Below are positions 36,062 through 54,864 of a stretch of 64,000 nucleotides of DNA, piece after piece (within the stretch, counting starts at the first letter, position 1; each line of letters starts with the position of its first letter). The translations under genes were made by a program, and so were the position numbers. Under the pieces are notes generated by a model. The model worked only from the letters and a program-made list of their open reading frames with translations. It did not search any database and was not told the DNA's origin. Source of the stretch: Anaerolineae bacterium (GTDB lineage Bacteria; Chloroflexota; Anaerolineae; SpSt-313); the NCBI GenBank assembly GCA_034428955.1, contig DAOUGZ010000316.1:285-64284 (forward strand), given 5' to 3'.

Positions 36062-36874
36062 TTAGGCAGGCTGGAGGACCACGGCCTCGCCGTGCTCGCC
36101 AATCCAATAGCGCAGGCCGGGGTACTTGACGTCCATGTAGGCGGCAAAGAGCTGCGGGTCCTCCGAGTTGTTGGAAAACATCTCATAGTGCCCCGGCACG
36201 GTCAGGCGTGGGCGGAGGGCGCCGGCCAGGTCTACCGCCTCTTGATAGGTCATGTTGCCGATGCAGTTTCGGGCATAGCGCTCGGCATCGCGGCCGTTGA
36301 TGGGCAGGAAGGCCAGGTCAAAGCGCCAGCGCGAGAGCTTGGCCAGCAACCCCTCGTACCAGACCGTATCGCCGGTGTGCAGGATGGTCACGCCGCCGGC
36401 CTCGACCACATAGCAGAGGTAAGGGTAGCCCAGCTCAGGGTCGCGGTCCAGGAACTCGTGGGCCGCGGCGACGGCGGTGATGCGCACCCCATCCTCTTCG
36501 TGCGTCAGGCCGTCGTCCAGGGCCACAATCCGCCCCTCAGGCACGCCCAACTCGCGCACGTGCGCACTGGCCACACGCGAGCAGACAAAGCGCGCCTGCG
36601 GCGAGGCGGCAGCAATGCCCGGCACGGCCACGGGGTCGATGTGGTCGAGATGGTCGTGGCTGCCCAGGACCCAGTCGGCGTGGGTCACCTCCTCCGGCGC
36701 GACCAGGGGCGGGACGTTGCGCCCGGCGTGCGGCATGAGGAAGGGATCGAAGTAGAGAACCTTGCCGGCGACCTTGACGATGTAGCTGAGCTGCCCCAGC
36801 CACCAAAAGGCGACGGCGCCCTCGGCCAAATCAAGGCCGTTAACGTCAGCGATGAGTGCCTTGCCTGTCTTCAT
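36062..36874 (-). CDS. MBL-fold metallo-hydrolase (UlaG-like lactonase/hydrolase superfamily)
   Basis: HxHxDH motif (GSHDHLDHID) and downstream His/Asp ligands. Trimmed to M26. Confidence 0.75.
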   Translation of the reverse strand: MKTGKALIADVNGLDLAEGAVAFWWLGQLSYIVKVAGKVLYFDPFLMPHAGRNVPPLVAPEEVTHADWVLGSHDHLDHIDPVAVPGIAAASPQARFVCSRVASAHVRELGVPEGRIVALDDGLTHEEDGVRITAVAAAHEFLDRDPELGYPYLCYVVEAGGVTILHTGDTVWYEGLLAKLSRWRFDLAFLPINGRDAERYARNCIGNMTYQEAVDLAGALRPRLTVPGHYEMFSNNSEDPQLFAAYMDVKYPGLRYWIGEHGEAVVLQPA

Positions 36875-36906
36875 GCTCCCTCCAGTCTTGGTCCGGCTGC
36901 CGGCGC

Positions 36907-37731
36907 TCAGCGTCCGGCCAGGATCTCGGCCGCGCGCCGGAAACCGCACTCGGCGCTGGTGAACACGGGTACGCCAAACTCGGCAGGCGAGTCGGGGTAC
37001 GAAAAGGCGAACACAGCCATGGAAAGCTGGGCCAGGACGACGCAGCCAATCTCCTCGCGGCTGAGGCAGGCGCGGATTCCCTCAGCCAGGGCCCGGTTAT
37101 GGCCCTGCACGTCGCCCACGGCCAGCCGCTGCCACGCCTCTTCGACGGTCAGGCCGCTAAAGGTGACCTCGCAGCCCATCTCCGCCGCCGCCTCTTGCAG
37201 GAGCGCCTGGGTGCTGGCCACCGTGGGGCCGTGGGTGGCGACGACGAGCACGCGCCCGCCGTGGGCCACCGCCCGCTCCATCATCGGCCGGTCGATCTGC
37301 AGGACGGGCACGCCATAGGGCGAGAGGGCTTGCTCCACCTGGGCGTAAGCCCGGTTCATCGTCGAGCAGGTAATGAGCACCGCGTCGACCTGGGCCAACT
37401 CGACCAGGTCCTTGGCATAGCGCACAAAGGCATCGATATTAGGCTGGGGCGGGCAGGGCAGCCCCTGCTCATGCGCGGCCATAAAGTTGAGCTGCACCGC
37501 CTCGTTGCCCACGTTGACCAGGTGCACCCCAGGCAGGTACAGCCGCCCGAAATAGTTGGCCCAAAGGGTGATCCACGACGAGCCGTTCAGCAGGCCCAGC
37601 CGTTTGCCCCGTAGGGGCAGGGCGACCTCGCTCCCACATTCCACGGGTTCGGGCCCCAGGTGCGCCACGCCGGTCACCCGTAGATAGCTGGCGAAAAGAT
37701 CGAAAGGGTTGATATCGGCCAAGTCCGTCAC
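36907..37731 (-). CDS. Asp/Glu/hydantoin racemase superfamily protein (putative isomerase/racemase/decarboxylase)
   Basis: Two-Cys architecture (ITCSTM ... second domain) reminiscent of maleate isomerase/AMDase-like folds. Assignment is tentative. Confidence 0.5.
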   Translation of the reverse strand: MTDLADINPFDLFASYLRVTGVAHLGPEPVECGSEVALPLRGKRLGLLNGSSWITLWANYFGRLYLPGVHLVNVGNEAVQLNFMAAHEQGLPCPPQPNIDAFVRYAKDLVELAQVDAVLITCSTMNRAYAQVEQALSPYGVPVLQIDRPMMERAVAHGGRVLVVATHGPTVASTQALLQEAAAEMGCEVTFSGLTVEEAWQRLAVGDVQGHNRALAEGIRACLSREEIGCVVLAQLSMAVFAFSYPDSPAEFGVPVFTSAECGFRRAAEILAGR

Positions 37732-38672
37732 CGCAGTGCCTCCCGTGCCTCGATGGCCTCGCGCGCCGCGGCGGCAATGTCTTCAGGCCGCAGGCGATAC
37801 TCGGCCAGCAACTCGGCGACTCCGCCGCTCTCGATGAAGCGATCCTGCACGCCGATGCGCCGCAGCACGGCCGGCGCCCGCTCGCCGAGGACCTCGGCCA
37901 CGGCGCTGCCCAACCCACCGATGACCGAGGCGTTCTCTGCCGTGACCACGGCGCCCGTCTTGCGGGCCGACTCAGCGATCAGGTCCTCATCAATGGGCTT
38001 GACCGAGCCGTAGTGCAACACATCCGCCCAAATGCCGTCGCGGGCCAAAAGGTCCGCCGCCTGCAAGCAAAAGCCCGTCATCATGCCGGTGCCGATGAGG
38101 GTCACGTCGGCCCCCTCGCGCAGCCGGTGGCCCCGCCCCCAGGCGAACTGATGGCCCTCGCCGAAAAGATCGGGCAGGGTGTAGCGGGTGACGCGGAAAT
38201 AGACCGGCCCCTCGGTCAGCACCGCCGCGCGCATCATGGAGCGCAGTTCCCAGTTGTCCCCCGGATCGGCCACGCGCATGTGGGGCATACCACGCATAAT
38301 GGCCATATCGGTGACGGCATTGTGCGAAGCGCCGGCCCGGCTGGTGGGGATGCCCACATAAGAGCCGGGGATCTTGACGTTCAGCTTGGGGTAGGCGATG
38401 CTGATCGACACCTGGTCCAACGCTCGCTTGGCCGCGAACACGGCAAAGGTGCAGGGGAAGGGAATGTACCCCTGCGTGGCCAGCCCGGCGGCGATGCCGA
38501 ACATGTTCTGCTCGGCGATGCCGCATTGGATAAAGCGAGCCGGAAAGGCCTGCTTAAAGTATACGGCCTTGCTGGAGGTGTGCAAATCCGCGTCGAGCAC
38601 GATAATATTGGGGAACTCGTGCCCCAGCTCGAGCAGGGTTTTGCCGAACACGTCGCGCATTTCCTCGGGCAT
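37728..38672 (-). CDS. Transketolase, C-terminal (pyrimidine-binding plus C-terminal domain) subunit of a split transketolase
   Basis: FIQCGIAEQNMFGIAAGLA and GASHNAVTDMA motifs. ATG 38672 after GGAGAATGAGAGG. Confidence 0.9.
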   Translation of the reverse strand: MPEEMRDVFGKTLLELGHEFPNIIVLDADLHTSSKAVYFKQAFPARFIQCGIAEQNMFGIAAGLATQGYIPFPCTFAVFAAKRALDQVSISIAYPKLNVKIPGSYVGIPTSRAGASHNAVTDMAIMRGMPHMRVADPGDNWELRSMMRAAVLTEGPVYFRVTRYTLPDLFGEGHQFAWGRGHRLREGADVTLIGTGMMTGFCLQAADLLARDGIWADVLHYGSVKPIDEDLIAESARKTGAVVTAENASVIGGLGSAVAEVLGERAPAVLRRIGVQDRFIESGGVAELLAEYRLRPEDIAAAAREAIEAREALR

Positions 38673-38682
38673 GGTCAGCCTC

Positions 38683-39594
38683 TCATTCTCCACCGTAGAA
38701 CTTTTCCTTGGCCACCGGGTCGTCGAGCTTGCTGTAGCCTTCCGCCGGCCGGCCATAGTTGCGAGCCAGGCGGCGCAGCATGGCATCGGCATCCTCCGGG
38801 TCCGGCGCCTGGGTGTGCCACTTGTAGTTGAACTCGGTCTGGCTCAGGCCCTTGCCCTTGACGGTGTGGGCGATGATCGCCACGGGGGCGCCGTGGACAC
38901 GCACGTGACGCGCCGCGTGCAGCGTCTGCAGCAGGGCTTCGATGTCGTGCCCGTCAACCTCCAGCACCTCCCAGCCAAAGGCCCGCCACTTGTCGGCAAA
39001 GGGCTCCAGGGTCATCTCCTCCCAGATAAAGCCCTTGGCCATGACCTTGTTATAGTCCACGATGGCGATGAGGTTATCCAGGTGATAGTGGGCCGCCGAC
39101 ATGGCCGCCTCCCACACCTGGCCCTCGTCGCACTCGCCGTCGCCCAGCAGGCAGTAGACGCGGTTGTAGGGCATCTCGCGGAAGCGAAAGCCCAGGGCCA
39201 TGCCCACGCTGATGGAGAGCCCCTGGCCCAGCGGCCCGCCGGAAGACTCGAGCCCGGGCGTGCGGGTCATGTCGGTGTGCCCCTCCAGGCGCCCGCCCAG
39301 CTCGCAGTAGGTATAGACCTCCTCCAGCGGGAAAAAGCCGCGCAGGGCCAGGGCGGCATAGAGGGCCGGCGAGGCGTGAGCCTTGGAGAGGACAAAGCGG
39401 TCCCGCTCCTCCCAGCGGGGGTTCTGCGGGTCCACCTGCAACTCGCGGAAGTAGAGGCAGGCCAAAAGCTCGGCAATGGAAAAGGCGCCGCCGACATGCC
39501 CCCAGCGGCCGTAGGTGATCATCTCCAGGCTCAACCGGCGGATCCGGTAGGCGATTTCCTCCAGCCGGTCAATCTCTTGGGGTTTGAGGCGCAT
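38683..39594 (-). CDS. Transketolase, N-terminal (TPP-binding) subunit of a split transketolase
   Basis: GHVGGAFS, CLLGDGECDEGQVWEAA, and TPP-binding GDG...N motifs. Confidence 0.9.
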   Translation of the reverse strand: MRLKPQEIDRLEEIAYRIRRLSLEMITYGRWGHVGGAFSIAELLACLYFRELQVDPQNPRWEERDRFVLSKAHASPALYAALALRGFFPLEEVYTYCELGGRLEGHTDMTRTPGLESSGGPLGQGLSISVGMALGFRFREMPYNRVYCLLGDGECDEGQVWEAAMSAAHYHLDNLIAIVDYNKVMAKGFIWEEMTLEPFADKWRAFGWEVLEVDGHDIEALLQTLHAARHVRVHGAPVAIIAHTVKGKGLSQTEFNYKWHTQAPDPEDADAMLRRLARNYGRPAEGYSKLDDPVAKEKFYGGE

Positions 39595-39629
39595 AGAGGC
39601 AGTCTCCTTTCAAGGAAGCGCTACCCGCG

Positions 39630-40380
39630 TCAAGGGCGAGGCGCACACGCCGCGGCAAACTCGGCACCGATGACGGTGTATCCCACCGTCTCCTCGAACC
39701 AGGCGACCCAGCGGGCGGTATTCTCCAGATTCGCCACGCTCTCCGGCGTCTCCCCGGCGAGGGTGCCGTCGCGCAGCCAGATGACGGTATAGTTGCGATA
39801 GAGGGCGTCGAGGGCGGTGGCGGCCAGGCAGACGTTGGCCCACAGCCCGGCACAGACCAGATTGCGCACCCCCAGGTTGCGCAGGGCCGTGTCCAGCCGG
39901 GTGTCGAAAAAGCCGCTGTAGACGTGCTTGCGAATGTAGGGCTCGCCCTCGCGCGGCGCCAGGCGGGGGGATATCTTGAGCGGCCCGGCAGGCCCGCCGT
40001 GGTATTCACGCGAGTCCACGCCGCCCTCGGCGAATGTGCGGTTAAAGGTGTCGGGCACACCATCGAGGCTCCAGCTACGGGCGAAATGGGCGCCAAAGGC
40101 CGAGCGTTCGAGCGCGATGCGCGGCGCGCTGTTCATGGCATAGAGCACCGGCAGGCCCACGGCGCGGGCCGCGTCGAGGGCCAGGGCGATGCGCCCCTCC
40201 ATGCGCTGCAGGTGAGGCACGAGGGGGTCCGCCGGGTCGCCCCAGTCGCCGCGTTTTTGGTCGTTGTAGTAGACGTCTACGAGGAGCAACCCCGTCTCCG
40301 AACGCGACAGGAGCAGGTCCTCGTGCCGCTCCTCTCCCGAGTGGGTGTAGCGGCCGCATAATGCGAGGGCTTTGCTCATC
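39630..40380 (-). CDS. Isochorismatase-family cysteine hydrolase
   Basis: LLLVDVYYND, VYSGFFDTRLDTALRNLGVRNLVCAGLWANVCL. ATG overlaps the upstream stop (TGATG). The tracked ORF has a spurious 210-codon N-terminal extension. Confidence 0.8.
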
Positions 40381-41515
40381 ACGCCTCCATCTTGCCCCAG
40401 ACCCGGCGTACGGTTTCGAGGTAGTACATATAGTTGTCGAGCGGGACGTCCGGCGGCACGCGATGATCGCAAAAGCCGATGTAGCCGCCCTCCTCCACCA
40501 AAGGCGCCAGGCGATAGACCTCTTGCTCGATCTCGCGCTTGCCCTGGGCCAGGATGTGCTTGTCGAACCCGCCCAGCATGAGCAGGTCCCGGCCGTACTC
40601 CTGGCGGTAGCGAACCGGGTCCGCGCCCCAGGTGCCGACCTCGACCGGGAAGAGGCCGTTGATGCCCGCTTCGAGCCACAGAGGGATGAGGGCGTCGATC
40701 TGGCCGTCGCAATCGATCCAGATGACCTCGACGCCATGCTTGCGGACCAGGTCGCTGATGCGGCGATAGTGGGGCACGAGATACCGCTTGACGTGCTGAG
40801 GGCTCAGAAGCGGCCCGCTGCTGTAGCACATGTCTTCCCACAGGGCGCAGGCGTCGAACTGACCACCCGTCTCCAGCACCCGGCCAAAGACGCCGATGAT
40901 GCAGTCGGCGACGGTGGTCACCATCTCTTCGAACCAGGCCGGGTCGTCGTACACGACCATCGAGAGCTTCTCGACGCCCATCCAGTTGCGCAGCCAGCCA
41001 TAGAGGCTGGCACAATACCGCCCACAGGGCAGGGCGATGACCTCATTGCGCTCGGGGTCGGCCCACAATCGGGTGCGCTCTTCCCAGTCTGGGGGGTAGC
41101 GGTCGGGGTGTGCCGGGTCCAGGCGGGGTTTGTAGTGCTTGCGCCAACTGTCGCGGTCCACCAGTTGGTGGCCGATGGGCATGGGGATAGTGCTGCCCAG
41201 CTTGCTGCGCAGCACGCGCACGCCATCCCACTGCTGGACGAGTTCGCGCTCGCCGCAATCCTCCAGCACGACCTCTTCAAAGGCCGGCATGAGGCCCACC
41301 TCAACGCCCGTCGCAGCCATGACCGCATCCAGGCCATAGTCCATGCCAAAGAAGGCGTCGCTGTTGGTCTTGTCGATGTGCGGCGGCAGGCCCTGCCCAT
41401 GCCAAACGGAGAGGGTCTCGCGCCAAAAGCCGAAATCGCAGATGGGCGCGCGGTCGCGCGGTTGGTAGCGCATGGTGGCCAGAAAACGCTCTCGGTCGGT
41501 CATCGGCCCGATCAT
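40379..41515 (-). CDS. Uroporphyrinogen decarboxylase (URO-D)-like family protein, paralog 1
   Basis: URO-D/MtaA-like TIM-barrel signature across the full length; 4-nt overlap with GH2. Confidence 0.85.
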   Translation of the reverse strand: MIGPMTDRERFLATMRYQPRDRAPICDFGFWRETLSVWHGQGLPPHIDKTNSDAFFGMDYGLDAVMAATGVEVGLMPAFEEVVLEDCGERELVQQWDGVRVLRSKLGSTIPMPIGHQLVDRDSWRKHYKPRLDPAHPDRYPPDWEERTRLWADPERNEVIALPCGRYCASLYGWLRNWMGVEKLSMVVYDDPAWFEEMVTTVADCIIGVFGRVLETGGQFDACALWEDMCYSSGPLLSPQHVKRYLVPHYRRISDLVRKHGVEVIWIDCDGQIDALIPLWLEAGINGLFPVEVGTWGADPVRYRQEYGRDLLMLGGFDKHILAQGKREIEQEVYRLAPLVEEGGYIGFCDHRVPPDVPLDNYMYYLETVRRVWGKMEA

Positions 41516-44337
41516 GGCAGCTCGCCTCCTTCGCCCGCGGCCAGGCGTACCAGGTTGCGCGCCAGGGTGGCGGCGATGGGGTTGGCCTGGGCCTGCTCAA
41601 AGATGCGGTACTGGCAAAAGATCAGCCGGCCCCGGCCACAGGGGATGGCCTCGATGTCGCTGTACCAGAGGATGGCGGAGGGCTCGCGCCGGGTCTGGGT
41701 GTTGCGCAGGGAACCGGCCAGGACCTCGCCGCCCAGCTCGGTCATGACGTACCAGGGCAGCACGTCCACATAGGCCTCGCCACCAAGCCCCTTCGGCAGC
41801 CCGGCAAAGAGGCCGGACTGGGGTTGCCAGTGGTAGCAGCCCATCCAATTGCCGATGCCGTAATGGAGCTGGAGCGGCACCCCCCGCTCCTGGAGGACGC
41901 GCCGGGCGAGTTCGTCGCGCGGATGCAGCGCGCCGATGATGCCGGTGCGCCCTTGCTCTACCTCGCCGAGCAGGCGCTGCCAGTCGCCCTCGCTGAGGGT
42001 CGCCGGCAGGGCAGCCAGCAACACGGGGCGCTCCCCAGGCGCGCTCGCCGCCCCGTCCGCCCAAGCCGCCGGAACGCTTCCGAGGCACTCCACACTCGCC
42101 GCCGCCCGGCTCAGGTCCGGCGGCACGAGCGCCAGGATGGCCTCAACGGACTCGGCCAGTACCTCCCCATCCCTGAGCAGGCGCGCGGATACCCGCCACT
42201 CCCCAGGCTCTTGGCCGGTCTCGACGGCGACGGCGCCCATCTCGCGGACGCCGGTGCCCGCCGGCGCGGCATAGCTCGTCTCGCGCTCGGCCCCCGAAGG
42301 GCTCTGCACGGTCACCCGTACCTCTTCCGCCCCCTGCAGCGGCTCGCGGCTGACCAGGGTCAGGGCCACCTCGATACGCTCGCCGCAAGCGGCCGCAGGC
42401 TTGGCCGCCTTGAGGATCAGGCACTGGGGCCGCTGGAGCCGCTTGAGCACCTCGTAGACCGGCTTGGGGTTGCGCCAGTGGTCGAGGAGGCCGGCGTGGA
42501 ACTCCCAGGCCACGTCATTGAGCTGGGTGACGATATACCCCGACACCCGTGGGTTGGCCAGGAGCGCCTCGACCTGGCGCTTGAGGCCGGCGGCCTGCAG
42601 TGCCTGCGAGGCGCGGACCAGCTCGCGCACGGAGGGGAAAACGCGGTCCAGGCGGCGCGCGGCAAAGCCCTGCTGCAGGCTGTCGCGGAAGGCCATCATC
42701 TCGCGGGCGTCGCGCAGGTCTTGGCGCCCCTGAAAGCCGGCAACGACCTGGTCCAGGTCGGCCATGCCGCCGCAGCCCAGCTCGGAGACAAAGACCTGGC
42801 CCCGGTAAGATGCCAGCCCTTGGGCCCACTTGTCCAGCATCGCCGGCGAGCCGAAATCGAGGGCCGCCATGTCTACCGGGGGCGGGCTGATGCCCAGGGT
42901 GCGCATCCACTCATACGCCTCTGAGGGGATGGGGGCGCCGATGTAGACGTGCAGGTCCTGGATCGGTTGGCGCTGCATCTCGCGGGAGGGGATAACGGTA
43001 GTGCGATCGGCCCAGCCGTAATCCTGATCGATGGCCATCGTGCCGCCCGAGTTGTCCAGCACCACACGCGTGGGGTCCAGGGCGCGGGCGAGGCGGGTGA
43101 GTTCGTCGCTGTTGAGGGCGTTGGCCGCCCGGTTCTCGTTGTTGATGCCCCAGATGACGACGGAGGGATGGTTGCGGTCGCGTTCGATCATCGCCCGCAG
43201 CTCGCGCCGGCCATGATCCAGCAGGCGCGGGCTGTCTTTGATCCAGGCCAGGCAGCTCTCGGCGTAGACCAGCATGCCCAGCTCATCGGCCAGGTCCAGG
43301 TAGCCCGGCGGCGCCGGCCGGATGTGAGCGCGGATCAGGTTGAACCCGGCCTCCTTGGCCAGGGTGATCTCGCGCACCATCATCTCGCGCGTCGGCGGAG
43401 TGACGATGGTGATTGGATAGTTAGGCTGCAGAAGCAGGCCCCGCAGCAGGATGGGCTCGCCGTTGAGGAAGAACCGGCCGTCGCGCACGGTGAAATCGCG
43501 CAGGCCAAAGCGCACCGTCCGGCTATCCACCTCGGCGCCGCCTCGCCGCAGCGCCAAGCGCAGGGTGTAGAGGTGCGGGTTGCGGCAATCCCAGAGCAGC
43601 GGGCGCGGCAGGGGGATGCGATAGGAGAAGGAAGACTCCCCCGGTGGCAGCACGACCTGAGAAGACTCTGTGGCGGCCAGGTCGCCGGAAGGCCCCTTCA
43701 CCTCCAGCCGCAGCACGGCACCTTGGCTCTCCTGGTCATAGTTCTCAAGGGCCGCCTCCACCCGCACCATCTCTTGGGCCGGGTCGGGCTCGACGGTCAC
43801 CGCTGTGCAAAAGGTGGTGGGCAAGGCCTCCAGGTAGACCTCTCCCCAGAGGCCGCCGTGGGTGTAATACCAGCTCTGCTTGGAGGCCGGCGACTGCTGC
43901 AGGACCATGCCGTCCACGTCCCAGGTCTTGGCCAGGCTCGCCACGCGCACTACCAGCTCGCTCTCCGCGCCGGGCCGGATGTGCGGCGTGACATCAAAGC
44001 CAAAGGGGGTGTAGGCACCCTCGTGGCTGCCCACATAGGCGCCATTGAGCCAAGCCTGGGTGCGATAGCTGGCGCCGCGAAAGTGCAGGCGCACCACGCG
44101 CCCCTGCCAATCCGCAGGAACGGTAAAGACGCGCCGGTAAAAGCCCACGCCCTCGGCATCGGGATGGGTAACGTTCCACAGAGCGGGCACCTGCACGCGC
44201 TCGGCGCGCGCCTCGGGCCAGTGGCCAAGCGCCCAGCCCGCGCGAATGCCCTCGCACGCCGGGTCGAAGGCCAGTTGCCACAGGCCGGCCAACTCCAGCC
44301 GTGGCCTGAAGCTGGGAAGGTCTATCGGGTGAGCCAT
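41512..44337 (-). CDS. Glycoside hydrolase family 2 (beta-galactosidase/beta-glucuronidase/beta-mannosidase-like) with an extended C-terminal region
   Basis: GH2 sugar-binding (WLNGAYVGSHEGAYTPFGFDVT), Ig-like and TIM-barrel (NHPSVVIWGINNEN) domains. ATG 44337 after GGAGAG. Confidence 0.85.
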   Translation of the reverse strand: MAHPIDLPSFRPRLELAGLWQLAFDPACEGIRAGWALGHWPEARAERVQVPALWNVTHPDAEGVGFYRRVFTVPADWQGRVVRLHFRGASYRTQAWLNGAYVGSHEGAYTPFGFDVTPHIRPGAESELVVRVASLAKTWDVDGMVLQQSPASKQSWYYTHGGLWGEVYLEALPTTFCTAVTVEPDPAQEMVRVEAALENYDQESQGAVLRLEVKGPSGDLAATESSQVVLPPGESSFSYRIPLPRPLLWDCRNPHLYTLRLALRRGGAEVDSRTVRFGLRDFTVRDGRFFLNGEPILLRGLLLQPNYPITIVTPPTREMMVREITLAKEAGFNLIRAHIRPAPPGYLDLADELGMLVYAESCLAWIKDSPRLLDHGRRELRAMIERDRNHPSVVIWGINNENRAANALNSDELTRLARALDPTRVVLDNSGGTMAIDQDYGWADRTTVIPSREMQRQPIQDLHVYIGAPIPSEAYEWMRTLGISPPPVDMAALDFGSPAMLDKWAQGLASYRGQVFVSELGCGGMADLDQVVAGFQGRQDLRDAREMMAFRDSLQQGFAARRLDRVFPSVRELVRASQALQAAGLKRQVEALLANPRVSGYIVTQLNDVAWEFHAGLLDHWRNPKPVYEVLKRLQRPQCLILKAAKPAAACGERIEVALTLVSREPLQGAEEVRVTVQSPSGAERETSYAAPAGTGVREMGAVAVETGQEPGEWRVSARLLRDGEVLAESVEAILALVPPDLSRAAASVECLGSVPAAWADGAASAPGERPVLLAALPATLSEGDWQRLLGEVEQGRTGIIGALHPRDELARRVLQERGVPLQLHYGIGNWMGCYHWQPQSGLFAGLPKGLGGEAYVDVLPWYVMTELGGEVLAGSLRNTQTRREPSAILWYSDIEAIPCGRGRLIFCQYRIFEQAQANPIAATLARNLVRLAAGEGGELP

Positions 44338-44347
44338 GTCTCTCCTA

Positions 44348-45811: not shown

Positions 45812-45880
45812 CCTCCGCCTTCGGAGGTTTAGGGGGTAAACTGTCGCCGCCCGCGGGCGGCGACAGTTTACCCCCTAAAC
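45812..45880. repeat. Short hairpin (CCTCCG cctt CGGAGG) followed by a 54-bp perfect palindrome (27-bp arms, no loop) inside the operon between the Gfo/Idh/MocA and GH29 genes
   Basis: GTTTAGGGGGTAAACTGTCGCCGCCCG | CGGGCGGCGACAGTTTACCCCCTAAAC at 45827-45880, confirmed base by base. Confidence 0.7.
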
Positions 45881-45912
45881 CCCTATCCCAGCCTGGGCCG
45901 GGTAGCGCATAC

Positions 45913-46920: not shown

Positions 46921-46930
46921 GGCTTCTACC

Positions 46931-47980: not shown

Positions 47981-48101
47981 GGTTGCTCCTTCTGATTATT
48001 GCATTGGCTCTGGCGCTGGGCCCCACGGATATTTGCCGGCATCGTGGCACCACCCGCGACGGGCCTTGCCCGCCAGAGTCTCAGGCACGATGGGTTATCC
48101 A

Positions 48102-49103: not shown

Positions 49104-49114
49104 CAGGCACCCCT

Positions 49115-50269
49115 CTACTTTTCAACGGAGTGAAATGCCTCATAGACCCGCCACAGGGGCTCGACGCGCGCCGGCAGCGGCAGATGGGCCGGGAGCGGCC
49201 GGGCGCTTTGGTGGAGCGCCGCGTCGATCAGGGCGACGGCGTTCTCCGGCGGGACGTCCGGCAGGATGGCCTTGGCGGGGCTAAAGACGTAGCCGCCGCC
49301 GCGCCCCAGGTAGCGCAGGCAGGCCTCGGCCTCGCAGCGCACCTCCTCGGCAGTCCCGCGCGGCAGCGTATGCTGCGAGCTGACGCCGCCGTTCAGGCAA
49401 AGCGCGTGGCCGTAGCGACGCTTGATCTCCAGCATATCCATCGCTTCCGGCTGCAGCGGGTTGAGGATCTGGACGCCGATATCGATCAGGTCGGGCACGA
49501 TCTCGGTGACATCCCCGCAGGTGTGGACCATGACCACCATGCCTTTAGCCCGCACCCGCTCAAAAATGCGCCCGGCCCTGGGCTTGATGAGCTTGCGCCA
49601 GCGCTCCGGCCCCATGAGCAGGCCGCGCTGGGCACCCCAGTCGTCACCAAAGCGAAACCCGTCAAAGGGGTAGCCGGCGATGCGCTCGACAAGGCGCAGG
49701 TGCAGCTCCGTCAGAGCCTCCAACAGCTCCTCGGCAAAGACGGGATGCAGGACCATATCGGTCAGGAAGGCTTCCATCCCGCGCAAGGCCCAGCAGCGGT
49801 CAAAGAGGCCGTGCGCGTCGCCACACAGAACAAAGCGGTCCCCGTGTTCCGCCAGGAACTCGCCGGCGCCGTGGAAGTAGCTCTCCTCACACAGGTCGGG
49901 GAACTCGTACCCCCGCAACGAGGGCTCTTTTAGCGGGGAATCCTCCAGGTGCGGCGCATGGCCTGCCCGCCAGGTGCAGCCAAAGGCATCCACATAGCGG
50001 TCCGGGCCAAGCGGGCGCCGCGCCGCCTCGATGTGGAAGAAGGGCAGGTGGTTGACGATGCGCCCGGCCAGGTCGCGCCCCTCGGGGAGTTGAGTGAGCT
50101 TGTCCAGAGCGGCATCGTCGATGCGGATATCGTAGGGGACAATGTCCGACTCCTGCCCGGCCAGCGCCCTCAGCACACGCTCCTTGGGCGTCAGCCGCGC
50201 CGGCAGCCCATCCCGCTTGCCGCCCAACCGCTCGCCTCTGTTGCAGGGGATAGGTCTTTCTTCGCTCAC
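49115..50269 (-). CDS. URO-D-like family protein, paralog 3
   Basis: URO-D-like fold (FRFGDDWGAQRGLLMGP, HTCGDV). GTG start overlaps the permease stop (GTGA). The tracked ORF has a spurious 170-codon extension that runs antisense through the permease gene. Confidence 0.8.
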   Translation of the reverse strand: MSEERPIPCNRGERLGGKRDGLPARLTPKERVLRALAGQESDIVPYDIRIDDAALDKLTQLPEGRDLAGRIVNHLPFFHIEAARRPLGPDRYVDAFGCTWRAGHAPHLEDSPLKEPSLRGYEFPDLCEESYFHGAGEFLAEHGDRFVLCGDAHGLFDRCWALRGMEAFLTDMVLHPVFAEELLEALTELHLRLVERIAGYPFDGFRFGDDWGAQRGLLMGPERWRKLIKPRAGRIFERVRAKGMVVMVHTCGDVTEIVPDLIDIGVQILNPLQPEAMDMLEIKRRYGHALCLNGGVSSQHTLPRGTAEEVRCEAEACLRYLGRGGGYVFSPAKAILPDVPPENAVALIDAALHQSARPLPAHLPLPARVEPLWRVYEAFHSVEK

Positions 50270-51144
50270 CCCTTCAACGCCCCTGCCGTCATGCCCTTGA
50301 TCACATAGCGCTGCAGGAAGGCAAAAGCCAGCACCACCGGCACAATCGTAATGGCCATGCCGGCGGCCACGCCGGGCTCGTTGGAGGTAAAGTGGCCCTC
50401 CAACAGGCTGATGCCCACCGGCAGCGTGCGCGATTCCGTCGTGCCCGTCAGGACCAGGGCCAGGATGTACTCGCTCCAGGCGGAGAGAAAGTGAAAAGTG
50501 GCCATCGTCGCCAGGGCGGGCTGGGAGAGGGGCACAATGATGCGCCAGAAGACACTCCACATCCCCGCTCCGTCCATGATGGCCGCTTCCTCCAGCTCTT
50601 TCGGGATCGTCTCCATAAAGGCGCGCAGGAAAAAGACATTCCACGGGATGCCGACCGCGGCGTAGACAAGGGCCAGGCCGCCCAGGTTGTTGTAGAGGCC
50701 GATGCGACGGGTAAAGATGGCCAGGGGCACCAGGAGGATGGAGTGAGGGATCAAAAAGCCAAACAGGATATAGCCCCAAACCAACCCCTTGAGCCGGAAC
50801 TCGAAGCGCGCCAGGGCAAAGGCCGCCGTCGCGGCCAGGAGCAGCACCAAGATGAGGGAGCCGATAGTCAGCACGACGCTATTCAGGAAGTAGAGGCCCA
50901 TCTTGGCATGCACCCAGGCTTCCTGATAGTTGGACCACTTCCAGTGCGCCGGCAGGCCAAAGGGGTCGGCGTACAGCTCACGCGTGTACTTGAGGGAGGT
51001 GAGCAGTACCCAAACCAGCGGATACACACAGACGAGGGCCCACGCGATCAGCCCTGCGTGCAGCGCACCCTGCACAAGGCGGTGAATCCAGCGGTCGCGT
51101 CGTTGCTGCCTGGCGATATCGGCCTGGGAGCTGATTGCTGTCAT
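50266..51144 (-). CDS. ABC sugar transporter permease (MalG-like)
   Basis: EAA motif KELEEAAIMDGAGMWSVFWRIIVP. Start trimmed to the ATG just downstream of the preceding permease stop. Confidence 0.85.
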   Translation of the reverse strand: MTAISSQADIARQQRRDRWIHRLVQGALHAGLIAWALVCVYPLVWVLLTSLKYTRELYADPFGLPAHWKWSNYQEAWVHAKMGLYFLNSVVLTIGSLILVLLLAATAAFALARFEFRLKGLVWGYILFGFLIPHSILLVPLAIFTRRIGLYNNLGGLALVYAAVGIPWNVFFLRAFMETIPKELEEAAIMDGAGMWSVFWRIIVPLSQPALATMATFHFLSAWSEYILALVLTGTTESRTLPVGISLLEGHFTSNEPGVAAGMAITIVPVVLAFAFLQRYVIKGMTAGALKG

Positions 51145-51160
51145 CGCTTTCCCCATTTCC

Positions 51161-52081
51161 TCAAGCGTCCAGCGCCGCCTCATGCCGCCGGCCATAACGC
51201 CACACCAGCGTGACGGCGATGATGCCCAACAAGAAACTCAGCGTGGCGACTGCACTGCCATAGCCCCACGTCTTTTTCTGCCACAGCAGATACAGAGAGT
51301 AGGAGATCAAAGTCTCACTCAGGTGGATCGGGCCGCCCTTGGTCATCAGCAGAGGATAGATAAAGGCGCCCAGCGCGCCCTGCAGCGTCAGGACCATACA
51401 GGAGACGTACACGCCGCGGATGTTGGGCAACGTGACGTGCAGCAACTGCTGCCAGGCATTTGCCCCATCGATGGCGGCGGCCTCATAGTACTCCTCGGGT
51501 ATGCCCACCAAAGCCGCCAAAAAGATCACCATATAGAAGCCGATATGCTGCCACGAAGAGGGAAAGCTCGTAGCCCACTGTACGTACCCATCGCCGCTCA
51601 GCCATGGGCGCACCCAGGCGCCCCGCCCTGTCAGGCGCAGGAGGCTGTTGAGCACGCCATACTCGTTGCCGGAAAGAACAAAGCGCCACATCAGGGCCAT
51701 GGTAGTGGCCGGCAAAATCACCGGGATGTAGAACAAAAAGCGGTAGATGTTCGCCCCGCGACGGAGCCGGTTGAGCACAAACGCCAGCAGGAGAGCGACG
51801 GGCAGCATAAAGCCCCAATCCAGAGAGAGGCGGCGAGCGTTATTGACCAGCGCCAGGGGCACGATCGGATCGTTCAGCATCTGGGAAAAGTTGGCCAGGC
51901 CGACAAAGGGGGCGGCGCTGATAGGCCCACCTTCCCAATCCAGAACACTGTAATAGAGCGAGAGCAAGCTGGGGTAGAGCATCAGGGCGGTGTAGATGCC
52001 CACCGCCGGGAGCAGGAAGAGCGCAATGCCCACCGGATTCCCATACCACGAACGGCCCCTGTTTCTACGATTTCCCATCAT
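51161..52081 (-). CDS. ABC sugar transporter permease (MalF-like)
   Basis: Six TM helices and EAA YEAAAIDGANAWQQLLHVTLP. Start near the ATGATG at 52081. Confidence 0.85.
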   Translation of the reverse strand: MMGNRRNRGRSWYGNPVGIALFLLPAVGIYTALMLYPSLLSLYYSVLDWEGGPISAAPFVGLANFSQMLNDPIVPLALVNNARRLSLDWGFMLPVALLLAFVLNRLRRGANIYRFLFYIPVILPATTMALMWRFVLSGNEYGVLNSLLRLTGRGAWVRPWLSGDGYVQWATSFPSSWQHIGFYMVIFLAALVGIPEEYYEAAAIDGANAWQQLLHVTLPNIRGVYVSCMVLTLQGALGAFIYPLLMTKGGPIHLSETLISYSLYLLWQKKTWGYGSAVATLSFLLGIIAVTLVWRYGRRHEAALDA

Positions 52082-52192
52082 CACCCCCCGTTCCGCCGGC
52101 CATGACCCTGGGTAGGGGTTTGGCGGGTTGGTTGGCCTGGCCGCCCTGCGGGCGGCCAGGCCAACCAACCCGCCAAACCCTCAGATCAACAA

Positions 52193-53629
52193 CTATTCAG
52201 CGTACTTGGACATCTCGCTCTGGTAGGCGGTCATGGCGTCTTCCACGCTCTTGCCGGCCATGAGGGTCTGCAGGCCGGTCCAGCAGTCGTCCCAGCCGCG
52301 CTCCTGCATGGCCTGAGTGCCGGGCAGGCTGTATGCCGTGTCGGCCTGATACTGGGCATCGAGGAAGGCGAGCAGCAGCGGGTCGACGCCGCTGATGGAT
52401 TTGACATCGATGCTGACGTCCATCGGCGACTTGCAGAGGAGGATCCACTGCTTGGCCGCTTCCGGGCTAAAGAAGAACTTTAAGAAGGTGATAGCCGCCT
52501 CGAGCTTGGCCGGGTCCTCCTCCAGCTTTTTGGCCAGGCCAATGGGGGTCCCCAGCTTGAGCTCGACGGTCGTGCCGTTCTCGCCGGCGGCCGGATAGGG
52601 CGCGAACTGGACATTGTCCTTCAGATCGGGCGCCGCACCCTCACCGGTGATCTCATTGCCGATGGTCCAGGCCCCATTCAGATAGAAAGCGGTCTGTTCG
52701 GCGACAAAGAGGGCGACGGACTGCTGCCACGTCAGCTCGATCTCGTTGTCGGGGATCCACTTGTTATCCACAAAGACCTTCATCAGCTCAAAGGCCTTGG
52801 CGAGCTGTGGCGCGGCAAAGTCGTTGACTGCCAGGGCCTCGCGGCCGCCCTCCTGGCTGGCGATGATGTTGTGCCACTGATGGGCCCCACCCACGCCCCA
52901 GGAGGTGGCGAGCTTGCCGATGGCCTTGATCTTCTCGCAGGCCGAGAGCAATTCATCCCAGGTCGTGGGCACTTCTGCGACGCCGGCCTCCGCCAGGATG
53001 CGTGTGTTCCAGATGGTGGGCATGGGCGAAACTTCGGCCGAGAGCCCCCAGATATGGCCGTCGGTGCTGAAGGCATCCAGAGCATCCTGGGAGAAGAGCG
53101 CTTTCCACTCGGGGTCGGCATCGAGATGGGCCGCCAGGTCCACTACGTAACCGCCGTTCCACATGTCGGTGCCCGTTTCGTGGATGATGTCCGGGCAGTC
53201 GCCGGCGGCACAGTCGGCAAGGATCTTTTTGCGCGACTCTTCGCTGTCGGGGTTGAGGATGTTCTCGATCTTGATCTCGGGGTGCTCAGCGGCGAACTCT
53301 TCAAAGAGCCAGAGCATGCCCTCATAGTGAGCATCCGTCTCTTTGGACCAGTGGTTCTGGTAGCGCAGAACGACCGGCTCGGCCGGTGCCGCCGTCGGCT
53401 CGGGGGCCGCCGTGGGCTCGGGCACGGCCGTCGCTTCGGGCGCTGCCGTTGGCTCGGGCGCGGCGGTATTCTCCGCAACCGGCTGAGGTGCAGCAGTCGG
53501 CGCGGGCTTTTCGCTACAAGCTGAGAGGATGGGAGTGACCAGCGTGGTGCCCGCCAAGAGCCCCATCATCTTGAGCAGTTCGCGCCGGCTCATGGAACGA
53601 CCACACTGGAAGCGATTCCGTCCCTTCAC
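52193..53629 (-). CDS. ABC transporter sugar-binding lipoprotein with Pro/Ala/Glu-rich (PEPTAA repeat) N-terminal linker
   Basis: Signal/lipobox (LAGTTLVTPILSAC), the linker AAPEPTAAPEATAVPEPTAAPEPTAAP, then an SBP_bac_1 fold. GTG start after AAAGGAG. Confidence 0.9.
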   Translation of the reverse strand: MKGRNRFQCGRSMSRRELLKMMGLLAGTTLVTPILSACSEKPAPTAAPQPVAENTAAPEPTAAPEATAVPEPTAAPEPTAAPAEPVVLRYQNHWSKETDAHYEGMLWLFEEFAAEHPEIKIENILNPDSEESRKKILADCAAGDCPDIIHETGTDMWNGGYVVDLAAHLDADPEWKALFSQDALDAFSTDGHIWGLSAEVSPMPTIWNTRILAEAGVAEVPTTWDELLSACEKIKAIGKLATSWGVGGAHQWHNIIASQEGGREALAVNDFAAPQLAKAFELMKVFVDNKWIPDNEIELTWQQSVALFVAEQTAFYLNGAWTIGNEITGEGAAPDLKDNVQFAPYPAAGENGTTVELKLGTPIGLAKKLEEDPAKLEAAITFLKFFFSPEAAKQWILLCKSPMDVSIDVKSISGVDPLLLAFLDAQYQADTAYSLPGTQAMQERGWDDCWTGLQTLMAGKSVEDAMTAYQSEMSKYAE

Positions 53630-53798
53630 GTCGGATCTCCTTTCCTGGTATCAGAACGAAGGCCAATAGCGAGGGAAACGAGTGTCAACCTGGGTTACGC
53701 ATCCGATCGGGACCACCTCCCTTCGCCGGTGTTCGTGGGCCCTGAGCCGCATCAGCCGACCCGGACGCGGCTCCGCTCTCGACAAAGCGAGAGCCTCC

Positions 53799-54806
53799 TC
53801 AATGCGGAGGGGCCGTCGACTGGCGGGCGATTAGCGAGAACTGGAGCAAGACCCGTTTGGGCTCAGCGCGCCCATTGATCCGCTCGATGAGCGTCTCGGC
53901 CGCCAGGGTGCCCAGACGCCGTGGCGGCTGGCAGATGGTCGTAAGCGGCGGCACAGCGCGCCCGGCTTCATCAATGTCGTCGAAACCGATGATGGAAATA
54001 TCCTGCGGCACGCGCCAGCCGGCCTGCTGGGCCGTCTCCATGGCCCCCAGCGCGATCAGGTCGTTGGCACAAAAGACGGCCGTGGGGGGGGCCTCCCGGG
54101 CGAGCAGCGCCATGATGCCCTCTCGCCCCGCTTCGCGGGTATAGTCGCCGGAAATCAGCAGAGACTCGTCAACGGGCAAGCCGGCGGAGCCGAGGGCACG
54201 CCGGAACCCGGCCAGGCGGCGCATGCTGCTGGGCGTACCGGGCGGCCCCTGGATGAAAGCGATGCGCCGGTGGCCCAGACCCAGCAGATGCTCCACCGCA
54301 GCCTGCGCCCCTCGTTCGTTATCGCCGTGGACGTGATCCCAGTTGGAGGTCTGCTCCTCTTCGCTCATATAGTCGCCAAGGATAACGACAGAGACATCGT
54401 CGCCCATGAGCGGGTTCACGTGCTCATAGGTAACATGGTAGGGATGCAGAATCAGCCCACTAACCCAACCGGAAAGAGAGCGCAGAAAGCGCACCTCGCG
54501 CTGCAGGAGGCCATCGGTGCTGCAGACGATGACGGAATAGCCGTACTGGTCGGTCACATCCTGCACGGCCCGCGCCACACAGGACCAATAAGGGTTGCCG
54601 ATATCGGGCACGACGAGCGCCAGGAGGGGGATCGCTTTTCTGCTCAGGGCGCGAGCGAGCCGGTTGGGCCGGTAGTTGAGTTCCTTCACAGCCGCCATCA
54701 CCCGCTGGTACAGTTCGGGGCTGACGTAGTGAGTATCGTTGATCACATGCGATACGGTCGCTACGGACACCCCTGCCCGCCGCGCAACATCTCGAATCGT
54801 AGCCAC
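53799..54806 (-). CDS. LacI family transcriptional regulator
   Basis: N-terminal HTH ATIRDVARRAGVSVATVSHVIN and a periplasmic-binding-like effector domain. GTG start after GGGAG. Confidence 0.9.
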   Translation of the reverse strand: MATIRDVARRAGVSVATVSHVINDTHYVSPELYQRVMAAVKELNYRPNRLARALSRKAIPLLALVVPDIGNPYWSCVARAVQDVTDQYGYSVIVCSTDGLLQREVRFLRSLSGWVSGLILHPYHVTYEHVNPLMGDDVSVVILGDYMSEEEQTSNWDHVHGDNERGAQAAVEHLLGLGHRRIAFIQGPPGTPSSMRRLAGFRRALGSAGLPVDESLLISGDYTREAGREGIMALLAREAPPTAVFCANDLIALGAMETAQQAGWRVPQDISIIGFDDIDEAGRAVPPLTTICQPPRRLGTLAAETLIERINGRAEPKRVLLQFSLIARQSTAPPH

Positions 54807-54830
54807 GCAAACACTCCCAATCAGAGGCTT

Positions 54831-54864
54831 AACCGTTTATATAAACGGTTATAAAACCGGTTAA
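54831..54864. promoter_or_regulatory. Candidate LacI operator: perfect 20-bp palindrome AACCGTTTATATAAACGGTT plus adjacent AACCGGTT half-site repeat
   Basis: Lies 25-58 nt upstream of the lacI-family start, at the head of the long minus-strand locus. Confidence 0.55.

Follow-up and report, generated by a model that had tools for sequence, protein, structure and literature searches.

What does a bacterium degrade, and by what chemistry, with an operon that joins a sugar importer and two glycosidases to three proteins of the uroporphyrinogen decarboxylase (URO-D) superfamily and a split transketolase (TK)? Such an operon lies on the minus strand of the 64-kb stretch of contig DAOUGZ010000316.1 analysed here (the whole stretch is referred to as the window), whose closest relatives are Anaerolineae metagenome-assembled genomes (MAGs); these 64 kb are the part of the host genome that the analysis covers. 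We found that the gene set recurs in rearranged form in other Chloroflexota, and that the operon is probably the genetic basis of an as yet undescribed route, without a kinase, by which a decorated and possibly methylated sugar is used. Taken as a whole, the locus is tentatively best explained as one LacI-repressed catabolic operon of an Anaerolineae-like Chloroflexota bacterium, which would import an oligosaccharide through a CUT1 ABC system and dismantle it in the cytoplasm. Regarding substrate and chemistry, we infer, with reservations, that a decorated β-glycoside/α-L-fucoside (or α-L-galactoside) oligosaccharide may be demethylated, oxidised and cleaved by TK without ATP.

Architecture and conservation of the operon

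Read from the open reading frame (ORF) listing and its translation, 16 minus-strand genes form an unbroken chain from 36062 to 54806. This is one gene fewer than the 17 counted in the original prediction for this DNA, which had otherwise correctly described a co-directional, tightly spaced unit headed by a LacI regulator with a perfect palindromic operator. The family labels given there held throughout, as all assignments of the operon genes were supported by Pfam or NCBIfam. In order of transcription, preceded by promoter and operator, the features are:

54865..54893, minus strand: sigma-70-like promoter, TTGACA-17-TATGAT, TG-extended; 11/12 match, the top match in a 19-kb scan
54830..54851, no strand: perfect 22-bp palindrome TAACCGTTTATATAAACGGTTA, candidate LacI operator; arms 100% complementary
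53799..54806, minus strand: LacI-family repressor, 335 aa (Pfam LacI HTH and Peripla_BP_3)
52193..53629, minus strand: CUT1 ABC substrate-binding lipoprotein (SBP; Pfam SBP_bac_1) with an LSAC lipobox
51161..52168, minus strand: ABC permease 1 (Pfam BPD_transp_1)
50266..51156, minus strand: ABC permease 2 (Pfam BPD_transp_1)
49115..50269 (start possibly the TTG at 50227), minus strand: URO-D#1, MtaA-like URO-D-superfamily protein (Pfam URO-D, E 1e-24)
48102..49103, minus strand: URO-D#2, divergent MtaA-like URO-D-superfamily protein (Pfam URO-D, E 6e-10)
46931..47980, minus strand: MDR/Zn-ADH-fold dehydrogenase (ADH; Pfam ADH_zinc_N)
45913..46920, minus strand: GFO/IDH/MocA oxidoreductase (GFO; Pfam GFO_IDH_MocA)
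44348..45802, minus strand: cytoplasmic protein of the GH29 α-L-fucosidase/α-L-galactosidase family (Pfam Alpha_L_fucos PF01120, catalytic domain, 2e-98, and PF16757, C-terminal domain)
41512..44337, minus strand: GH2 glycosidase, 941 aa (Pfam PF02837, PF00703 and PF02836: sugar-binding, Ig-like and TIM-barrel domains)
40379..41515, minus strand: URO-D#3, highly conserved, with invariant DCDG and FCDH motifs (Pfam URO-D, E 3e-15)
39630..40385, minus strand: isochorismatase-like (cysteine) hydrolase, distantly RutB-like (Pfam Isochorismatase)
38683..39594, minus strand: split TK, thiamine diphosphate (ThDP)-binding N-terminal subunit TK_N (Pfam Transketolase_N)
37728..38672, minus strand: split TK, Pyr/C-terminal subunit TK_C, pocket motif GSYVGIPTSRAGASHN (Pfam Transket_pyr and Transketolase_C)
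36907..37731, minus strand: Asp/Glu/hydantoin-racemase-fold protein (Pfam PF01177 Asp_Glu_race), translationally coupled to TK_C
36062..36874, minus strand: metallo-β-lactamase (MBL)-fold hydrolase (Pfam Lactamase_B_2; weak UlaG-like match), last gene

Four junctions overlap, namely permease 2/URO-D#1 (4 nt, GTGA, or, should translation begin at the TTG at 50227, as in the 370-aa public product P0241, 100% identical to URO-D#1, a gap of 38 nt), GH2/URO-D#3 (ATGA), URO-D#3/isochorismatase (approximately 4-7 nt) and TK_C/racemase (GTGA). Three gaps are longer, at 110-169 nt (LacI-SBP, 169; URO-D#2-ADH, 121; GFO-GH29, 110), and most others measure 4-35 nt (permease 1-permease 2, 4; ADH-GFO, GH29-GH2 and TK_N-TK_C, 10 each; URO-D#1-URO-D#2, 11; racemase-MBL, 32; isochorismatase-TK_N, 35), with the SBP-permease 1 gap at 24-114 nt. 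No convincing intrinsic terminator was found inside the chain. The palindrome, with arms TAACCGTTTAT and ATAAACGGTTA at 54830-54851, lies between the promoter (54893-54865) and the LacI start; it is the sole copy in the window and had 0 matches in 100 shuffles. By NCBIfam the LacI protein is RbsR/PurR-like, below equivalog cut-offs.

Conservation of the gene set was surveyed from two anchors. The first survey searched one genome per species with an alignment of URO-D#3 homologues; the second searched metagenome contigs with an alignment of the racemase-fold protein, and its counts come from 33 loci of at least 6 kb. The window's proteins were placed in the resulting loci (designated L001 and so on) by tblastn. 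Most relatives are MAGs or metagenome contigs, and the co-occurrence counts are raw, with no formal background model. Of the 492 relatives given by the first survey, the best 80 share 58-78% identity and belong to Chloroflexota (Anaerolineae, Caldilineaceae), Planctomycetota, Armatimonadota and Opitutales.

In rearranged orders, 6-11 of the operon's genes recur on at least nine contigs, which represent approximately four Chloroflexota lineages. The Anaerolineae/Anaerolinea MAG loci L001 and L006 read (SBP-)permease-permease-URO-D#1-ADH-GFO-GH2-URO-D#3 at 65-89% identity, with the SBP in L006 only, and L057, from a more distant MAG, has this set plus the isochorismatase gene on two strands at 37-70% identity. 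In L148, L149 and L155, a minus-strand ADH gene stands beside SBP-permease-permease-isochorismatase-GH2-TK_N-TK_C-racemase-URO-D#1-transaldolase, while L100, L105 and L116 read GFO-GH2-GH29-TK_N-TK_C-racemase-transaldolase, then GH127. Shorter versions occur in L101 (LacI-isochorismatase-TK_N-TK_C-racemase, 73-87% identity), L088 (a GntR gene beside TK_N-TK_C-racemase-transaldolase, then a CUT2 ABC system, isochorismatase and URO-D) and L007 (URO-D#3 at 71%, two further URO-D genes and a TK pair). Gene by gene, orthologues of the SBP (57-75% identity; L006, L057, L148, L155), permease 1 (66-88%; L001, L006, L057, L148/149/155), URO-D#1 (48-69%; L001, L006, L057, L147-149), ADH (75% in L001/L006; 37-39% in L057, L148, L155), GFO (52-76%; L001, L006, L057, L100, L116), GH29 (63-65%; L100, L105, L116, L155) and the isochorismatase (40-75%; L057, L088, L101, L148/149/155, L152, L158, L163) were placed in these loci, and GH2 orthologues (45-66%) in nine of them, GH2 being the glycosidase retained in every orthologous sugar locus.

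The racemase-anchored loci revealed a second conserved unit. As TK_C is present in 32 and TK_N in 31 of the 33, TK_N-TK_C-racemase is a near-invariant cassette, in which TK_C and the racemase gene usually overlap. Its partners in the 33 loci are transaldolase (15), CUT1 permeases (13-14), URO-D (7-11), GntR/FCD (10), isochorismatase (8), GH2 (6), GFO (5), GH29 (4) and DUF1537 kinase (4), with transaldolase or the DUF1537 acid-sugar kinase usually following the cassette. Since an unusual gene combination re-forms in different orders in approximately four lineages, this is good evidence of functional coupling, and the genes likely belong to one conserved catabolic system. The original prediction was to fall if its genes were not conserved together; they do recur together. 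A search of the literature, which left most subscription journals out of scope, found neither the gene set nor corrinoid-dependent sugar demethylation nor a TK/Asp-Glu-racemase pair described.

Parts of the operon stand apart from this conservation. The MBL and LacI genes and most of URO-D#2 are not kept in related loci, where regulators vary, and GH29 is optional. That URO-D#2 survives only as an orthologous fragment at the L155 end, that approximately 165 related loci yielded no MBL orthologue, and that many cassette loci have no URO-D or GH gene, so that the cassette may be a general hub, all speak against a single pathway. A different explanation, which we consider unlikely but by no means remote, is that a glycan operon became fused by chance to non-sugar URO-D methyltransferases and a housekeeping TK-racemase(-transaldolase) hub, with no single novel pathway among them. 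In many loci the cassette stands alone under GntR with transaldolase, URO-D#3 orthologues lie mostly in non-sugar contexts or corrinoid clusters, and the sugar core of L001/L006 has no TK; moreover, TK, racemase and URO-D#3 are unusually conserved (65-87% identity), like housekeeping genes, and TK_N and TK_C are approximately 50% identical to a bona fide split TK. However, chance fusion is hard to reconcile with at least four lineages (those of L057, L148/155, L100/116 and the window) having re-formed the same combination in differing orders, with the L148 cassette being embedded between GH2 and URO-D#1, and with isochorismatase orthologues that accompany the cassette in L101 and L088 and the sugar core in L057. 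A housekeeping role also sits poorly with a TK whose sugar-phosphate pocket is without the canonical Asp and His, and with the second TK pair beside the cassette in L123.

The URO-D-like proteins and possible corrinoid methyl transfer

Are the URO-D-like proteins enzymes of heme synthesis? Against the HemE equivalog TIGR01464 (cut-off 303 bits), URO-D#3 scored 18.6 bits and URO-D#1 and #2 gave no match at E ≤ 1e-3, and no heme or tetrapyrrole gene is among the annotated ORFs of the window. Judged from their sequences the three proteins are not HemE, as had been anticipated; PF01208, which matches all three, and its (β/α)8 fold are common to the whole superfamily and do not discriminate for HemE.

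The URO-D superfamily, with its corrinoid methyltransferases, has been described (PMC10418091), and the operon's proteins share the URO-D TIM barrel with MtaA, MtbA, CmuA and the O-demethylase methyltransferases (PMC10418091; 4ay7). The best solved relative of URO-D#1 is the methylcobalamin:CoM methyltransferase MtaA (4ay7, E 1e-9), and its NCBIfam matches are to the MtaA/CmuA family, far under the cut-off. The H-x-C-G motif of MtaA is kept as HTCG in URO-D#1 and reads HSCG in URO-D#2. A PDB sequence search gave no match for URO-D#2 or URO-D#3.

URO-D#3 belongs to a large family (2,437 matches) whose 120 best clusters are all at least 65% identical, while URO-D#1 homologues drop to approximately 40%. 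A same-strand corrinoid (B12-binding) gene occurs in 22 of 82 URO-D#3 orthologue loci (58-78% identity) and lies within 310 nt in 13 of them. These clusters often also carry RACo, a PF02574 methyltransferase, DUF1638, CobW and further URO-D paralogues, an operonic grouping like that of MtaA-type systems, and the TK_N-TK_C-racemase genes of L111 have two URO-D genes and a B12-binding gene directly upstream. In profile alignments, Cys269 of URO-D#3 (DCDG) falls on the MtaA-type HxC cysteine and its invariant FCDH (348-351) within the loop where MtaA carries its third ligand, several of the residue equivalences being read from pairwise alignments, not structures. A Cys/Cys/His metal site at MtaA/MetE-type positions is a trait of alkyl transferases rather than of HemE. 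The AF2 model of URO-D#3 (pLDDT 84) was equidistant from MtaA and HemE (TM approximately 0.55-0.6, 12-16% identity): the structure prediction suggested with the original claim thus returned a URO-D fold, but no preference between the two. Since the fold searches of this model and of the racemase model were informative at superfamily level only, no function was transferred from them.

As URO-D#3 orthologues are linked to corrinoid proteins, they are a pointer to corrinoid methyl transfer, and we consider it quite possible, if short of probable, that the URO-D proteins of the operon transfer methyl groups. The conservation pattern fits URO-D#3 as a candidate corrinoid-to-acceptor enzyme and URO-D#1 and #2 as putative substrate-specific methyltransferases. 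The suggestion that the trio demodifies a methylated sugar therefore gains from the corrinoid linkage and loses from the window's own content, where a search for a corrinoid protein, RACo, PF02574, DUF1638, CobW and transaldolase found none. Several further observations count against methyl transfer. The window has no MT2-type pterin/Hcy methyltransferase and, in an Rfam scan, no cobalamin or other riboswitch; the B12-binding gene is also absent from the orthologous sugar loci L001, L006 and L057. Against the MtaA/CmuA subfamily model TIGR01463 (cut-off 235 bits), URO-D#1, #2 and #3 reached 64, 27 and 22 bits. Unlike in MtaA/CmuA, the His-x-Cys...Cys zinc triad is incomplete in URO-D#1 and #2, with SPAK replacing the PGCG that holds the third zinc cysteine in URO-D#1, or is replaced by DCDG...FCDH in URO-D#3, and the HxC cysteine of URO-D#1 (Cys228) is not conserved in its homologues. 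For Co(I), an alkyl (sugar) methyl ether is chemically a harder target than an aryl ether, and we know of no precedent for such an attack.

Could these proteins instead be cofactor-independent decarboxylases or lyases acting on sugar acids or phosphates, in an oxidative uronate/aldonate pathway that ends in TK cleavage? The equidistant model of URO-D#3, the incomplete MtaA zinc triad of URO-D#1 and the missing corrinoid gene in the window and L001/L006/L057 would all allow it, and four loci have URO-D#3 directly after a DUF1537 acid-sugar kinase, beside LarA-like and ADH genes, an arrangement that would fit a decarboxylase and so also detracts from methyl transfer. However, the same-strand corrinoid linkage (22/82) is far stronger than the kinase linkage (4/82), the invariant Cys/Cys/His of URO-D#3 sits at MtaA/MetE-type metal positions, and the HemE scores are negligible. 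A decarboxylase role thus appears improbable to us.

Other URO-D#3 loci have features of their own. In L020, L031, L034 and L035 (approximately 9-15 kb), the DUF1537 kinase and the URO-D#3 orthologue after it face divergent LarA-like and Zn-ADH genes, labels that were given by eye from cluster representatives. Large corrinoid methyltransferase clusters of Chloroflexota and Armatimonadota (L004, 4082-17436; also L036, L042, L068 and L077) contain up to four URO-D paralogues, a B12-binding protein, RACo, PF02574, DUF1638, CobW and a 359-aa protein with no Pfam match, and adjoin an MsmK-type sugar-ABC ATPase and sugar oxidoreductases. The string at 3741-13794 of L111 comprises URO-D, a xylose-isomerase-like TIM barrel, URO-D, B12-binding, TK_N-TK_C-racemase, an IolD-like ThDP enzyme and AP_endonuc_2, which hints at catabolism of a methylated inositol (pinitol-type) via the same cassette.

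The transketolase-racemase cassette

The closest solved TK is the split enzyme of Carboxydothermus hydrogenoformans (6yak for TK_N, 289 bits; 6yaj for TK_C, 306 bits), with which the operon's TK shares the two-chain architecture and the ThDP motif GDG...N (GDGECDEG...DYN in the window); all three TK domains are present. Unlike that enzyme, the window TK has a non-canonical pocket: the motif reads ATHAGLTVGEDGASHQ in 6yaj, which is canonical, GSHCGVSIGEDGPSQ in human TK and GSYVGIPTSRAGASHN in window TK_C, with His replaced by Tyr, Glu by Arg and Asp by Ala relative to H...GEDGxSHQ. The change is conserved across the cassette family, where the signature SY..G.PTS(R/K)AG.SHN was found in 53 of the 56 TK_C homologues of the fetched loci; of the three exceptions, two belong to the TK pairs that L123 and L007 carry separately. 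When the 148 nearest 50%-identity cluster representatives of a library of 1.8 billion proteins were compared, His and Asp were kept in 76 and the combination of Tyr, Arg/Lys and Ala occurred in nine, five of which are the cassette family itself.

The altered residues are ones that touch the substrate. This Asp (E. coli D469, yeast D477, human D424) reads the acceptor C2-OH, which is the donor C4-OH, and sets the D-threo preference, while the His (E. coli H461, human H416) helps to bind the substrate phosphate. By eye, the equivalents of human R318, R474 and S345 are retained. Because of its altered pocket residues the enzyme appears to be a specialised TK with an altered but still anionic substrate; a housekeeping role, which together with HemE identity of the URO-D-like proteins would have undone the original prediction, is unlikely in view of the conserved non-canonical motif. 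The inferred donor, a non-phosphorylated keto-acid sugar, is nevertheless rather doubtful in our estimate, and this doubt counts against the proposed cleavage.

The racemase-fold partner is 62-79% identical across the loci and clusters examined, and one metagenome scan confirmed 343 relatives. Its AF2 model (pLDDT 85.5) matched hydantoin, Asp, Glu and allantoin racemases at fold level (13-22% identity). Its invariants are ITCSTMNR (Cys122), LAQLSM and Cys262; read by eye, the second catalytic-cysteine site may correspond to the LAQLSM segment, with Ser. Acid-sugar markers lie near the cassettes, including DUF1537 kinases (the D-threonate/3-oxo-tetronate kinase family), GntR/FCD regulators, HpcH/HpaI and RraA-like aldolases and the IolD-like ThDP enzyme of L111.

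Beyond the cassette family, the pocket motif of split-TK-like C-terminal subunits is very diverse (P0361-P0510; approximately half of the 148 keep His and Asp), which suggests many uncharacterised TK-like specificities. In L123, a TK-racemase-transaldolase cassette under GntR control is preceded, 2 kb upstream, by a second, divergent TK pair (1973-3668; 45% and 38% identity; motif GHAAGQSLGYAGPSHH).

The glycan, the proposed pathway and its neighbours

Which glycan might feed this cassette? GH2 and GH29 have no signal peptides, and hydrolysis would therefore be cytoplasmic, on imported oligosaccharide. The best solved relative of GH29 is BpGH29 (409 bits, against 211-270 for classical fucosidases), an exo-α-L-galactosidase of the Bacteroides plebeius porphyran polysaccharide utilisation locus (PUL; PMC12316285). 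Since the GH29 sequence cluster that holds BpGH29 is not isofunctional (PMC11189522), we take the α-L-galactosidase reading as a lead only. The pairing of GH29 with GH2 also recalls BpGH29/BpGH2C of that locus, where the pair serves an O-methylated L-Gal/D-Gal glycan that needs demethylation (PMC12316285), although the operon, unlike the porphyran PUL, has no sulfatase, GH16 or GH86. Additional glycosidases in related loci (GH127, GH116 and GH66) point to complex plant, algal or microbial heteroglycans as substrate. The importer and glycosidases leave the proposed substrate less constrained than this suggests: liganded solved structures were all too distant from the SBP for ligand assignment, the nearest solved relatives of GH2 (β-glucuronidase, β-galactosidases and β-galactofuranosidase) have similar, modest scores that do not fix its specificity, and all its NCBIfam equivalog scores are far under the cut-offs.

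The original prediction had put forward fucose as one hypothesis, with TK cleaving a 6-deoxy-ketose (fuculose or a derivative) in the manner of the sulfoquinovose (sulfo-TK) pathway; in such a route the URO-D proteins would be accessories. GH29 does lie beside the cassette at 63-65% identity in L100, L105, L116 and L155, and a kinase-free logic would match sulfo-TK. Pfam annotation of the 16 genes gave no kinase, aldolase or dehydratase and no FucI, FucK or FucA; the predicted absence of these enzymes and of fuconate dehydratase is thus borne out and leaves room for another fucose route. In addition, epimerising L-fuculose at C3 would give 6-deoxy-L-sorbose, whose 3S,4R configuration is accepted by TK and transaldolase. 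However, L-fuculose is (3R,4R,5S) and TK donors are 3S, so that 3-epimerisation to 6-deoxy-L-sorbose would be needed, and the locus has neither a fucose isomerase nor a ketose 3-epimerase. GH29 is also missing from L001, L006, L057 (21 kb), L148/149 and L101, while GH2, URO-D and TK are kept; the cassette occurs elsewhere with no fucosidase, beside DUF1537 kinases or IolD, so that its neighbours point to acid sugars; and the GH29 protein itself is closest to an exo-α-L-galactosidase in a non-isofunctional cluster. We therefore regard fucose as the pathway substrate as very unlikely.

An acid sugar could arise from the two dehydrogenases. In L-galactose catabolism, a dehydrogenase yields the aldonate, which an aldonate 5-dehydrogenase converts to D-tagaturonate (PMC12632266). 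By analogy, the GFO and ADH pair could run an L-galactose-type oxidation to a ketose with a terminal carboxylate, and, as in the oxidative L-galactose/L-glucose pathway of LguA and LguD (to D-tagaturonate or 5-keto-L-gluconate; PMC12632266), two dehydrogenases and a possible lactonase could yield a keto-uronate; unlike there, UxaB, UxaA, KdgK and KdgA are absent from the operon, with the TK-racemase cassette in their place. The GFO protein is IolG-like by NCBIfam (4e-32, below the cut-off), solved structures were too distant from it for ligand assignment, and both dehydrogenases are just weakly similar to characterised enzymes. The ADH has SGIKHGTE in place of the classical GxCxxD catalytic-Cys motif, its ADH_N match spans just 37 residues, and it may work without catalytic zinc. 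The MBL protein, which had been suggested as a possible lactonase, was rejected as a conserved lactonase and core feature, as no orthologue is found in the related loci.

On the reading we favour, a decorated oligosaccharide would be imported by the CUT1 ABC system, and GH2 with the optional GH29 would release a β-linked sugar and α-L-fucose or α-L-galactose. The URO-D proteins would strip a methyl group in a corrinoid-dependent reaction, with the corrinoid protein and its activator encoded elsewhere; URO-D#1 and #2 would act as the substrate-specific methyltransferases, and URO-D#3 would use its Cys/Cys/His site to hand the corrinoid-bound methyl group on to an acceptor. The isochorismatase-like hydrolase would take off another substituent, of amide or ester type, and the GFO and ADH dehydrogenases, with the MBL protein if it is a lactonase, would oxidise the sugar to a keto or acid sugar. 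The specialised TK and its racemase-fold partner would then carry out an ATP-free cleavage, transferring a C2 unit to glyceraldehyde 3-phosphate (GAP) to form xylulose 5-phosphate (Xu5P), so that carbon would reach the pentose-phosphate pool kinase-free, as in sulfo-TK. The C4/C2 acid remainder may go to the DUF1537 kinase or glyoxylate-type enzymes nearby, and in other genomes transaldolase or a DUF1537 kinase may deal with an alternative or remaining fragment.

How close is this to known systems? The sulfo-TK pathway comprises SqvD, the split transketolase SqwGH, SqwI, SqwF and SqwE and is known from Clostridium sp. MSTE9 (PMC12890257), and the analogy drawn to its split TK and lack of a kinase was accurate. 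In gene content, the operon resembles it in having a two-subunit ThDP transketolase in a kinase-free sugar-catabolic cluster and in the proposed logic of a C2 ketol passing from a non-phosphorylated anionic ketose to GAP, and related loci pair TK with transaldolase, as in the bifurcated TK/transaldolase route of Faecalicatena (PMC11659671). Unlike sulfo-TK, it has no GH31 sulfoquinovosidase, SqvD/SqwI isomerase, sulfoacetaldehyde reductase or sulfonate exporter, and its TK is coupled to a racemase-fold protein and shares the operon with URO-D-like, isochorismatase-like, GH2 and GH29 proteins. A sulfoglycolytic TK/transaldolase pathway for a sulfoquinovose-type sugar is thus extremely improbable, for all its resemblance in split TK, transaldolase (elsewhere) and missing kinase, the report of sulfo-transaldolase in Chloroflexi and a TauE/SafE-family permease 12 kb away in another operon, as the related loci have no GH31 sulfoquinovosidase, SqvD/SqwI-type isomerase, sulfoacetaldehyde/sulfolactaldehyde reductase or Xsc, their glycosidases are GH2, GH29, GH127, GH116 and GH66, and the adjacent ThDP enzyme matches glyoxylate carboligase, not Xsc. 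Carter et al. reportedly described in 2018 a pathway for the plant cell-wall sugar D-apiose with a split apulose-4-phosphate transketolase, AptA/AptB, beside an ABC importer, which is said to need apiose isomerase and apulose kinase; unlike it, the operon has no isomerase, kinase or apiosidase, and its NCBIfam TK matches are generic only. To our knowledge, no corrinoid methyltransferase has been described in a glycoside-hydrolase/ABC sugar operon. By the scores, motifs and gene content compared, the system falls outside HemE, MtaA/CmuA, canonical TK, sulfo-TK and the known fucose routes.

The operon's neighbours include a possible remote member, 10 kb away:

24214..25623, minus strand: DUF1537 acid-sugar kinase

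This kinase is 52-66% identical to kinases directly after cassettes in L085, L098, L137, L153 and L169. It belongs to a minus-strand string (17405-25623) headed by an IclR gene (25701-26588, minus strand), together with a TauE/SafE permease, a PLP enzyme of the BhcC-like 3-hydroxy-D-aspartate aldolase family (318 bits, cut-off 690), GcvT, GcvPA and GcvPB, a combination suggestive of C2-C4 acid metabolism linked to glyoxylate/glycine. Converging on the locus from the plus strand is a second CUT1 sugar operon (26664-36013), whose end is separated from the MBL stop by 49 nt. Besides an SBP and two permeases, it codes for a protein of 885 aa that has no Pfam match and weakly matches a GH138-like α-D-galacturonidase, for an FAD oxidoreductase of PF12831 and for a ThDP enzyme resembling glyoxylate carboligase (699 bits, cut-off 791; ALS 514). 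G+C is 0.56-0.58 at 26001-30000, which holds the SBP and permeases of this operon, against 0.62-0.70 elsewhere, and the stretch may be a recent acquisition. The adjacent glyoxylate-carboligase-like and BhcC-like genes were considered as pathway members and set aside, with no homologues within 10 kb of any cassette; the window's FAD oxidoreductase is just 27% identical to the one beside the cassettes of L094/L108. The other flank, upstream of the locus, holds housekeeping genes (IMPase-like, SpoU, radical SAM, UbiA, PheS) and a second, shorter GH2 gene (582 aa; 59567-61315, plus strand).

The boldest form of the favoured reading combines two unprecedented activities, an O2-independent, corrinoid-dependent sugar O-demethylation by MtaA-like URO-D proteins and a new TK subfamily (SY...S(R/K)AG) that, with its racemase partner, would cleave a non-phosphorylated keto-uronate or keto-aldonate to Xu5P and a C4/C2 acid ('urono-TK', by comparison with sulfo-TK); that both hold together is quite unlikely. 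If they do, the consequences would reach beyond this locus. In porphyran-type galactans, 6-O-methyl-D-galactose is demethylated in marine aerobes by an O2-requiring P450 (PMC6292453), whereas the operon has no P450 or ferredoxin, and the mechanism of anaerobic methyl-galactose demethylation has been described as undiscovered (PMC12316285). The URO-D reaction would be the anaerobic counterpart of that P450, and the operon would supply candidate genes for this acknowledged gap, the anaerobic demethylation of methylated sugars (6-O-Me-Gal, 2-O-Me-Fuc/Xyl, 4-O-Me-GlcA and others), as well as a function for sugar-locus URO-D proteins now labelled just 'uroporphyrinogen decarboxylase family'. The TK would be the third case, after sulfo-TK and apiose-TK, of a transketolase recruited as a catabolic C-C lyase, distinguished by a diagnostic motif in its active site and by an obligatory partner of racemase fold. 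Whatever the mechanism, the TK_N-TK_C-racemase cassette and URO-D#3 represent large, highly conserved, uncharacterised families that are common in Anaerolineae and Caldilineae, abundant degraders of sediments, mats and digesters.

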